64,000 nt of DNA. It comes from Planctomycetia bacterium (lineage in GTDB: Bacteria; Planctomycetota; Planctomycetia; Pirellulales; Thermoguttaceae). Position numbers and translations under genes: made by a program. The notes under the pieces were generated by a model. The model was not told where the DNA came from. It saw only the letters and a list, made by a program, of their open reading frames with translations, and ran no database searches. Below, in pieces: positions 31,626 to 33,244 of the stretch (within the stretch, counting starts at the first letter, position 1; the number at the start of each line of letters is the position of its first letter). The stretch lies in contig JAUNSJ010000001.1 of NCBI GenBank assembly GCA_030539295.1, positions 1 through 64,000 of the forward strand, given 5' to 3'.

Positions 31626-32675
31626 TTAGGGAACGGTAACCGTAAAGCCATCGTTGACACAACCCAGGCGTCTAAAGACGCTCCAGTCGGCTTGATCCGG
31701 CGTGCCCTCATCCTTATAATAATGTCGCACACCGGTCGGTGTGGTCATGGATAAGGCACGAACGGAGCCATCGGCCAGCAGGAAATTAATCACGCCCGAG
31801 TGCTCACTGGACCAGGACCCGTCGTTCTGAAAAGGTTCTTCACGCATACGGAATCCGGCCGCGTAGTCGCCCGTCGTGGCCGCCGCTCCGTGACCCCCGG
31901 TCACAAAGATGGAGCAGTCGACAGGATTCGCCGCGCCGCAACGATTAATCTGATTCGAGGGGATATGTTTCTCGCCCAGGATGACCTGATTTGACGTGCC
32001 ATCCATGAGCCAGGCAAAGGTATCGCGAGGCCGCCATCCGACCACGCTCGCGGTCGATATGTCATGAACCGCAACGCGAAACGCCGAGTTACAGACACTG
32101 GCCCAGTAGGGAGTGTAATGATCCCACCAGCGAGGCGGATTGTTGTCAACCATGCCGCCAACGATGGCATAATCGCCTTGCGGGCCATAGCTACCCACGT
32201 CGTAAGACCCCGCTGTGTCGTCGTAGCCGGACTCCGTTGATTGACCAGGCAAATACATTTCCGCACTGCGGCGTGACGGGCACCGATAGCCGGCTATATT
32301 GTAGCCGCGCCGCATTTCGTTTGTCATTGAGGCATTAAACCAGAAATTCGCGTTCGTCAAAAGATTTTGAAAATTCGCCGTACGAGTCCGAAGGTCGTCG
32401 TAGAGATTTGTCTGTTCCATATAGGGAAGGATAATCACAAAAAAGCTGGCTCGTTTACGCCCCGCTTCCGTACTTTCATTTCCCAGGCCAGTACCACTGT
32501 TCTCGCCAACGCATGAAGGCGGAAGTCCGTTGCGAACGTCATGGAAATTGTGGACGGCCAACCCAATCTGCTTGAGATTGTTCGTACACTCCATGCGTCG
32601 GGCCGCTTCGCGCGCTGCCTGGACCGCCGGTAAAAGCAGCGCGATTAAGATCCCGATAATCGCAATCACTACCAA
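31626..32675 (-). CDS. Second DUF1559 / prepilin-type N-terminal methylation protein. A tandem paralog (about 65% identical to 30468..31589) whose 5' end is disrupted by a C10/G10 homopolymer.
   Basis: The ORF as called starts inside the pilin TM helix ([10 protein letters not shown]...). In the same frame upstream it reads ...[18 protein letters not shown] with no start codon. A well-placed ATG with AAAAGGAGA RBS at 32782 is out of frame by 1 nt across the homopolymer at 32724-32733. Confidence 0.8.
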
Positions 32676-32723
32676 AAGTTCAACCAGGGTAAACGCTAAA
32701 ATCTTCTTTAGAGAGAAAAAACT

Positions 32724-32733
32724 CCCCCCCCCC
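32724..32733 (-). repeat. Homopolymeric C10 (G10 on the coding strand) tract between the RBS/ATG (32782) and the prepilin motif of the second DUF1559 gene.
   Basis: Read directly: actcccccccccc gcag. One extra G would fuse [16 protein letters not shown] to ...[27 protein letters not shown]. Confidence 0.7.
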
Positions 32734-33244
32734 GCAGTTTGCCTAACTCAATCGTTTTACACTTTCCAAGTTTTGTTGTCATGTCTCTGTCTCCTTTTCA
32801 AGGTGAAATTGAAAGTAAATTTTCGTGTGTTCACAAGCACATTTTGGCCGCACTGCTGCCAAGTTTCGTTTGTTTCGTTACGTTTTCATTTTGATTCTCC
32901 TCACAAGTCAAAAGTTTTCATGTTGACGAGAGACAAGTTTTTTCGTTGTCTCGGGCCTCGTTAAATTCAATCTTCTCACATTATAATACAATCGAAAGAA
33001 GATGTCAAACCAATTTTGCGAAAAATCGACCCTAATTTTGCGCAATTTTTTAGGGGTTAAATTGGGTACTCGTCCTTGTTTTTACGAGGTTTTCGTATAT
33101 TTTCGGGAGTGAGTCATAAAATCTGGGGCCATAAATTTTTTGTGAGCCCGAGGGCCGCGACCGACAAGGCAAAATCCACGCATCTGGCAATGAACTTGCC
33201 ACGGGGTGAATTCCGGGGCAAGTCCATTTCGGTAAAACGCAAAG

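Follow-up and report, generated by a model that had tools for sequence, protein, structure and literature searches.

A homopolymeric tract of ten guanines (G10) in the leader-coding region of a pseudopilin-like gene is probably a slipped-strand translational phase-variation switch, standing at its OFF length in the assembly analyzed here. The gene belongs to the DUF1559 family and lies on the reverse strand of the first 64,000 nucleotides (nt) of contig JAUNSJ010000001.1 (hereafter the window), part of the metagenome-assembled genome (MAG) GCA_030539295.1 of a Planctomycetia bacterium. Slipped-strand phase variation had been suggested for this locus in an initial annotation of the window, and the suggestion is now supported by tracts at the same position in more than 130 DUF1559 genes, by the occurrence of both ON and OFF alleles among them, and by the intact bodies of the OFF alleles.

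The tract occupies positions 32724-32733 and appears as C10 on the + strand, G10 on the coding (-) strand. A Shine-Dalgarno (SD) sequence, AAGGAGA (32796-32790, -), precedes an ATG (32782-32780) with a spacer of 7 nt; tract, ATG, and SD were all found where they had first been described, and a similar SD stands before the leader ATG in most tract-bearing homologues. From the SD/ATG region through the tract, the coding strand reads ATGACAACAAAACTTGGAAAGTGTAAAACGATTGAGTTAGGCAAACTGC-G10-AGTTTTTTCTCTCTAAAGAAGATTTTAGCG-TTTACCCTGGTTGAACTT, and G10 splits this strong initiation site from an intact DUF1559 body. The ATG opens the 5' part of the leader (32734-32782, -; 16 amino acids plus the C of an arginine codon), which is homologous to the leader of the paralogue P0048 described below. 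The 3' part, which is in the body frame and resembles that of intact homologues, adds 10 amino acids (32694-32723, -) up to the predicted prepilin-peptidase site between A and F of the cleavage/methylation motif A-FTLVELL. The predicted mature pseudopilin-like protein then extends intact, by its profile scores, from 32693 to the stop at 31626 (-) and carries a C-terminal H-X9-DG motif. Apart from G10, no G/C homopolymer in the window exceeds 7 nt; the next longest are two G7 runs at 15188 and 19435, and the A/T homopolymers of the window include A8 at 8595 and T8 at 44330. About 0.1 runs of at least 10 nt would be expected per window if bases were independent and identically distributed, which bears out the rarity first claimed for the tract; the GC content, previously put at about 52%, was measured as 50.1%.

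Conceptual translation of the window locus showed what each tract length would yield. At G10, the open reading frame (ORF) from the ATG comprises 24 codons (32708-32782, -), with the stop ending at 32708. Extending the tract to G11 in silico gave a fused protein of 385 amino acids, and shortening it to G8 gave the same protein minus one glycine (384 amino acids); all remaining lengths in a G8-G13 series stopped after 24-34 codons. A change in tract length therefore toggles between full-length and truncated products. The earlier statement that one additional G restores the frame is thus correct for G11 but incomplete, as the loss of 2 nt does so too. A TGA interrupts the body frame 15 nt 5' of the tract, and no ATG, GTG, or TTG was found between that TGA and a TTG at 32675. 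This TTG and a GTG at 32669 are in-frame internal starts within the transmembrane (TM) helix, which contradicts the view that the body ORF has no start codon. The product annotated in NCBI for this MAG, MDO5552133.1 (347 amino acids, N-terminus MIAIIG), begins at the GTG and has neither leader nor cleavage motif.

Comparison with the paralogue P0048 (MDO5553853.1) indicates that the ATG at 32782 is the real translation start, because P0048 has a homologous long leader that is in frame without a homopolymer. P0048 belongs to the same MAG accession series and is present in the Logan assembly of the same sequencing run. Its 29-amino-acid leader, VTKRFNAREKLDLGGLRYGDLGRLKKILA followed by FTLVELL, aligns with the window leader from the start codon via CTGCGG to the cleavage motif at both the nucleotide and the peptide level, and its Gs are interrupted (CTGCGGTATGGGGATTTAGGG). 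The window leader measures 89 nt and that of P0048 87 nt; the sole defect of the window gene would therefore be the length of its tract. A perfect match to the sigma-70 consensus (12/12; TTGACA-17 nt-TATAAT; 32980-33008, -) sits about 200 nt 5' of the ATG, in the 460-nt intergenic region 5' of the tract gene. This site is a candidate promoter by consensus match, planctomycete promoter rules being poorly known. A role for the tract as a promoter spacer was ruled out since SD and ATG lie upstream of it; almost all tract-bearing genes also have no start codon between tract and FTLVELL.

Profile searches placed the repaired protein in its family. It matched PF07596 (DUF1559/SBP_bac_10) at 144.2 bits (cut-off 23.3; residues 55-348), TIGR04294 (H-X9-DG) at 30.3 bits (cut-off 19; residues 324-345), PF07963 (N_methyl) at 23.4 bits (cut-off 21.2), and TIGR02532 at 19.1 bits (cut-off 16.3), and the PF07963 and TIGR02532 matches appeared only with the frame restored through the tract. 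The 356-codon body showed no second lesion, and all family motifs scored above their curated cut-offs.

Under the proposed mechanism, the tract would act from its position between a real SD and ATG (32782) and the cleavage/methylation motif. The leader would be removed at maturation by a predicted prepilin peptidase, so that length changes in multiples of three would be silent in the mature protein, while changes of one or two nt in either direction would break or restore the reading frame that joins start codon and body, turning synthesis off or on. At the present OFF length, translation from the ATG would end after 24 codons, and one G more or two fewer would bring back the 385- or 384-amino-acid pseudopilin. 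With a large set of DUF1559 genes constructed in this way, each cell lineage would express a stochastic, heritable, and reversible subset of pseudopilin-like surface or periplasmic proteins. The mechanism supposes that switching occurs at a useful rate within populations and that the prepilin peptidase cleaves the leader; phage, protist grazing, or host factors may be the selective agent.

The initial annotation had pointed to the 5' ends of other DUF1559 genes as a place to look for homopolymers; this check was the informative one, and the tracts proved recurrent. An unselected sample of 456 kb, in which 84 DUF1559 N-termini were present, combined 80 loci from a scan of genome contigs with ENA contig L001, which is partly syntenic; the source genome and its close relatives were not among the matches listed in that scan, the best of which was 36% identical. 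G/C runs of at least 10 nt numbered four in this sample, and each stood in a DUF1559 gene, on the coding strand, after a start codon and ahead of the (G/A)FTLVELL motif: G10 in L001 (ON), G11 in L002 (ON), G12 in L003 (OFF), and G12 in L008 (ON). All four leader peptides with a GGG or longer glycine run were encoded by pure G runs, and no tract was found in the cultured planctomycetes of the sample.

At the protein level, the N-terminus was truncated in 9 of the 120 best homologues, and 28 of the 111 complete leaders contained GGG or longer (e.g., VKLGGGG, NLGGGR, MLIWGGGRR), an approximately 19-fold enrichment per residue over the bodies. Three homologues had an annotated methionine start inside the TM helix, and each of the three had a G tract just 5' of it. 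Two of them showed a clear out-of-frame ATG, reading MKKLLENVKIGGGGLSVLF and then a stop in L082 (G12), and MKRCVKMGGAT and then a stop in L083 (G8). In the third (L084; G16), the tract lay near the contig end with a weak TTG as the only start.

Metagenome contigs were scanned with a pattern of G9, then 9-39 nt, then FTLVEL, which returned at least 125 tract sites of G9-G25 on at least 120 contigs (L086-L205). Among the matches listed, 72 sites had an upstream ATG in frame, usually behind AAGGAGA, and were scored as ON; 32 were OFF, the ORF from the upstream ATG entering the tract and stopping, with an SD in 28 of the 32; and 15 lay at contig ends. In a typical OFF allele the upstream ORF reads MKTNVKLGGGGRSV and then stops, and the body frame resumes inside the tract. 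Twenty-two of the OFF sites were strictly OFF, having no in-frame upstream start of any kind, and the other 10 had SD-less TTG or GTG codons as their only in-frame starts. The bodies behind OFF tracts were nonetheless full length in 24 of 26 complete cases (median 368 amino acids versus 370 for ON alleles), and corrections of both signs would be needed to restore them (df 1 and df 2 both common).

The tract-bearing genes, more than 130 in all, are distinct genes and not copies of one. All-against-all blastn showed that they share at most about 75% nucleotide identity with one another, and an uninterrupted tract has therefore been kept across deep divergence. Across 594 kb of tract-bearing contigs, the matches listed held 125 leader tracts versus 10 other runs of at least 9 nt, among which there was one clear exception to the pattern of one family and one position. 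At L196:8090, a G12 run lies in the N-terminus of a secreted protein outside the DUF1559 family (MEHVRLGGGGEYSVCLGLVLFMLLACSAKAQ...), which suggests that the same organisms use leader poly-G in other exported proteins as well. Bystander DUF1559 genes on the selected contigs carried a tract in four of nine cases. The tract is real and non-random.

Differences in length were also seen between closely related leaders. Tandem paralogues on L125 have near-identical leaders with G13 (ON) and G12 (OFF), and the leaders of L002 (G11, ON) and L003 (G12, OFF) are likewise near-identical. Searches of 90% protein clusters for variants in glycine count or truncation revealed no length polymorphism of one locus, the clusters being tiny, and exact-protein look-ups of the two DUF1559 products of the window matched no record. 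Close relatives also differ by point changes at the edge of the tract or within it: an R-to-G change (AGG to GGG) lengthens the tract in P0132 versus P0133 (the L106 gene), and in the comparison of L208/L209 with L117 an interrupted tract (G9-T-GG) stands in a gene with about 87% identity to one that has G9. Such changes show tract growth and decay.

A short conserved element accompanies the tract in the metagenome set. The sequence xTGT(T/C)AA(A/T)(A/T)T(A/G) directly abuts the tract on its 5' side in 79 of 103 sites (L086-L205; e.g., L133, L121, L130, L167) and occupies the 10-16 nt immediately 5' of it. It is mostly read as N-V-K-[LMI], giving the recurrent peptide context NVK[LMI]GGGG, but it is also read as M-L-x-W and in the third frame, which may reflect either conservation at the nucleotide level or repeated resetting of the frame. 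Variants ending in AAAATA or ATTA have TAA and TAG stops in the other two frames immediately ahead of the tract, and variants ending in AAAATG place an ATG in two frames. Runs of A7-A11 often lie a few nt 5' of the element or within the leader (L084:1-75; L132, L151, L096) and represent a possible second slippery run. The window carries only a diverged version of the element (GGCAAACTGC). We regard it as evenly balanced whether the family operates as a combinatorial lottery throughout a lineage of uncultured Planctomycetes, in which a large fraction of the many DUF1559 genes would each have their own leader poly-G switch with the 10-nt element xTGTTAAAWT. In a bolder version of this idea, the conserved element would itself function as DNA or RNA, for instance in setting slippage or initiation.

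Several observations weigh against a phase-variation switch. Three other paralogues in the MAG of the window lack a tract, and the 64-kb window contains only one. At the predicted cleavage site (KKILA-FTLVELL), position -1 is alanine in place of the canonical glycine; alanine is common at this position among the best homologues. No near-identical pairs, in which the same gene would have tracts of different length, were detected by blastn among the 125 sites and the earlier loci. Approximately 70% of the tract genes were in frame and 20-30% out of frame, a ratio that is biased because the search pattern selects tracts of G9 or longer, and a majority of ON alleles is also compatible with a functional poly-glycine leader and occasional errors. 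Illumina indel errors increase in G runs of at least 10 nt, and some of the OFF calls could be consensus errors for this reason.

An error in the length of the homopolymer at the window locus is, in our judgment, unlikely. The true tract would then be G11 or G8 and the gene intact and ON, and the tract might still be hypermutable. The source is a MAG, and indel errors rise in long G runs. Assemblers appear to struggle with these tracts: 26 of 125 sites among the matches listed lay at most 60 nt from a contig end, versus a chance expectation of about 1-2 of 125 for contigs of about 5 kb, and the contigs of L082-L084 begin about 100 nt 5' of their genes; in these two sets, contig ends very often fall within about 60-140 nt of the tract. 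Assemblies could break at tracts either through length heterogeneity in the population or through poor Illumina reads across poly-G. On L094:15-57, G10 and G25 runs lie 8 nt apart at a contig end 5' of a DUF1559 gene; this double run may be an assembly artifact of a very long or heterogeneous tract. Several results argue against an error at the window locus. Logan contigs of run SRR24915786, reached via the 134-amino-acid and GH2 genes near the tract gene, matched the window at 100% identity over 10,088 and 5,056 nt, and the one matching over 10,088 nt spans the tract and also shows G10. The assembly-error explanation that the initial annotation had offered is weakened by this agreement between two assemblers, yet both probably used the same reads and may share a systematic read error. 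The window contains no other broken long ORFs, and the ENA and JGI assemblies give the same tract at L208/L209. The share of OFF alleles, with shifts in both directions and from many Illumina assemblies, exceeds what sporadic error would be expected to produce. A long-read homopolymer artifact was ruled out, as the tracts recur in MEGAHIT, SPAdes, and JGI assemblies (contig names k119, k141, and NODE), which are Illumina-based where documented. It is very improbable that the gene is simply dead, that is, a decaying pseudogene with a one-off frameshift and no reversible switching. Losing a copy would be cheap, given the many DUF1559 paralogues and one that is 63% identical next door, but the body has no other lesion, its motifs score above the curated cut-offs, and SD, ATG, and consensus promoter are intact, leaving tract length as the sole defect. 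The homologous OFF bodies are nearly all full length as well, and a G10 tract would be expected to revert often by established slipped-strand mutagenesis.

Programmed recoding, by RNA-polymerase slippage or a ribosomal -1 frameshift with the tract tuning expression level, appears quite improbable. In its favor, the run G GGG GGG conforms in formal terms to the slippery pattern X XXY YYZ, a -1 shift is what the window allele would need, and long homopolymers can cause transcriptional slippage, as established for A/T runs. RNA polymerase slips less readily on G/C than on A/T runs, however, and OFF alleles require shifts of either sign, tract length ranges from 9 to 25, and most alleles are plainly in frame. 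A single programmed ribosomal frameshift was ruled out as a general mechanism, as OFF alleles need both +1 and -1 corrections. Alternatively, poly-G might merely encode useful poly-glycine in an unusually long prepilin leader, with no switching at all. The predominance of in-frame alleles and the recurrent NVK[LMI]GGGG context would fit, but the glycine runs use GGG exclusively, whereas GGG accounts for 14.6% of glycine codons in the gene bodies; glycine counts range from 2 to 8; and, depending on the gene, the conserved nucleotides 5' of the tract are translated in two or three different frames. With 20-30% of alleles out of frame ahead of intact bodies, and many members of the family, including the neighboring gene, managing with leaders of 5-10 amino acids and no glycine run, we consider this explanation extremely unlikely.

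Tract-bearing genes are apparently a habit of a group of uncultured Planctomycetes, and several of the source assemblies are termite-gut MAGs. The tract-bearing MAG WRMR01 has an accession inside the range that Hervé et al. (2020) used for their termite-gut MAGs, a set that includes L084 and was sequenced on Illumina HiSeq (PMC7024585). Tract-bearing MAGs of the JAIT and JAIS series have contig names of the MEGAHIT k119 type. Termite-gut metagenomes also underlie Ga0099364, Ga0123353, Ga0082212, and JGI24702J35022. In the ERZ272573xx series, ENA contigs (k141) match JGI Ga0123353 contigs at 99.9% identity, and the tract sequence agrees between L208 (ENA ERZ27257304) and L209 (JGI Ga0123353, 3300010167). 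L001 and L083 probably derive from re-assemblies of the same kind of samples (JGI termite series).

The neighborhood of the tract gene is partly conserved. Immediately downstream lies the tandem DUF1559 paralogue (30468-31589, -), which has a short leader of 10 amino acids before FTLVELL and no tract, followed by a gene for a small lipoprotein-like partner of 134 amino acids (30004-30408, -) with a CarboxypepD_reg-like match (E = 2e-4) below the Pfam cut-off. A gene for 131-139 amino acids is also found 3' of the DUF1559 gene in L001, L082, L083, L084, L208, and L209 (L001:5552-5947; L082:1340-1741; L083:1337-1732; L084:1431-1841; L208:1443-1859), and the window product is similar to its L001 counterpart. 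A GH2 glycosidase gene lies upstream of the tract gene, and the pair of DUF1559 and lipoprotein-like genes adjoins glycoside hydrolases (GH2, GH106), which hints at a module of pseudopilin, small partner, and glycosidase. Past the GH2 gene, the window encodes a CheB/CheR methylesterase-methyltransferase pair and a PAS/HisKA/response-regulator hybrid kinase (37258-42450, +) that are unrelated to the tract.

The mechanism proposed here is classical; the phylum Planctomycetota and the target family DUF1559 are new. No such system was found for Planctomycetota, and none of the four papers in the searched library that mention DUF1559 connects it to phase variation or homopolymers. In Campylobacter jejuni, Helicobacter pylori, and Haemophilus influenzae, G/C runs of about 8-13 nt are over-represented against the genome background, are concentrated in genes for surface structures, and show a mixture of ON and OFF states in genome consensus sequences. 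The loci of these three species span many classes, including glycosyltransferases, restriction-modification systems, and outer-membrane proteins, whereas the DUF1559 tracts, among the matches listed, fall nearly all in one family and at one position. The closest match is provided by the type IV pilus-related genes pilC1/pilC2 of Neisseria, in which a G run of about 9-20 nt near the 5' end of the coding sequence turns translation on and off by frameshifting. Jonsson et al. reportedly described in 1991 that the pilC tract lies in the part encoding the signal peptide, in-frame changes leaving the mature protein unchanged. PilC acts as a tip adhesin and retraction antagonist, its signal peptide is of the Sec type, and the pathogen has one or two copies, whereas the DUF1559 proteins have a predicted class III leader and many paralogues and occur in uncultured Planctomycetes, some of them from termite guts. 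In Neisseria, the genic pilC tract is given as G(9-20) and the CTTCT repeat of the Opa genes as 7-21 units (PMC5953494). The opa genes resemble the present case in being a multi-copy family with a separate repeat in the leader-coding part of every copy, giving combinatorial stochastic expression, but the repeat is a pentanucleotide (CTCTT/CTTCT) and not a homopolymer, and the products are outer-membrane beta-barrel adhesins. The earlier statement that contingency loci are undescribed in the superphylum of Planctomycetes, Verrucomicrobia, and Chlamydiae (PVC) is too strong, because several members of the pmp family of Chlamydiaceae have long poly-G tracts whose frame differed between sequencing efforts, intact in one and shifted in another (PMC3323650). 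The pmp genes thus offer a large paralogous family of surface proteins with poly-G in the same superphylum; they differ in encoding autotransporters of obligate intracellular pathogens of the Chlamydiota, and the position of the tract is not tied to a cleaved prepilin leader.

If the family does operate such a lottery, Planctomycetota would gain their first contingency-locus system and DUF1559 its first functional handle; few planctomycete protein families are as expanded and as little understood. The tracts also have practical consequences: annotation pipelines systematically mis-start such genes inside the TM helix (P0001, P0014, P0033, P0035), and assemblies tend to break at the tracts. Switches in dozens to hundreds of genes would imply that the proteins are individually dispensable, probably exposed, and under fluctuating or frequency-dependent selection; they would face a frequency-dependent enemy, such as phage, or match fluctuating substrates. 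Such a system would extend contingency loci to a non-pathogenic, uncultured lineage of gut symbionts.

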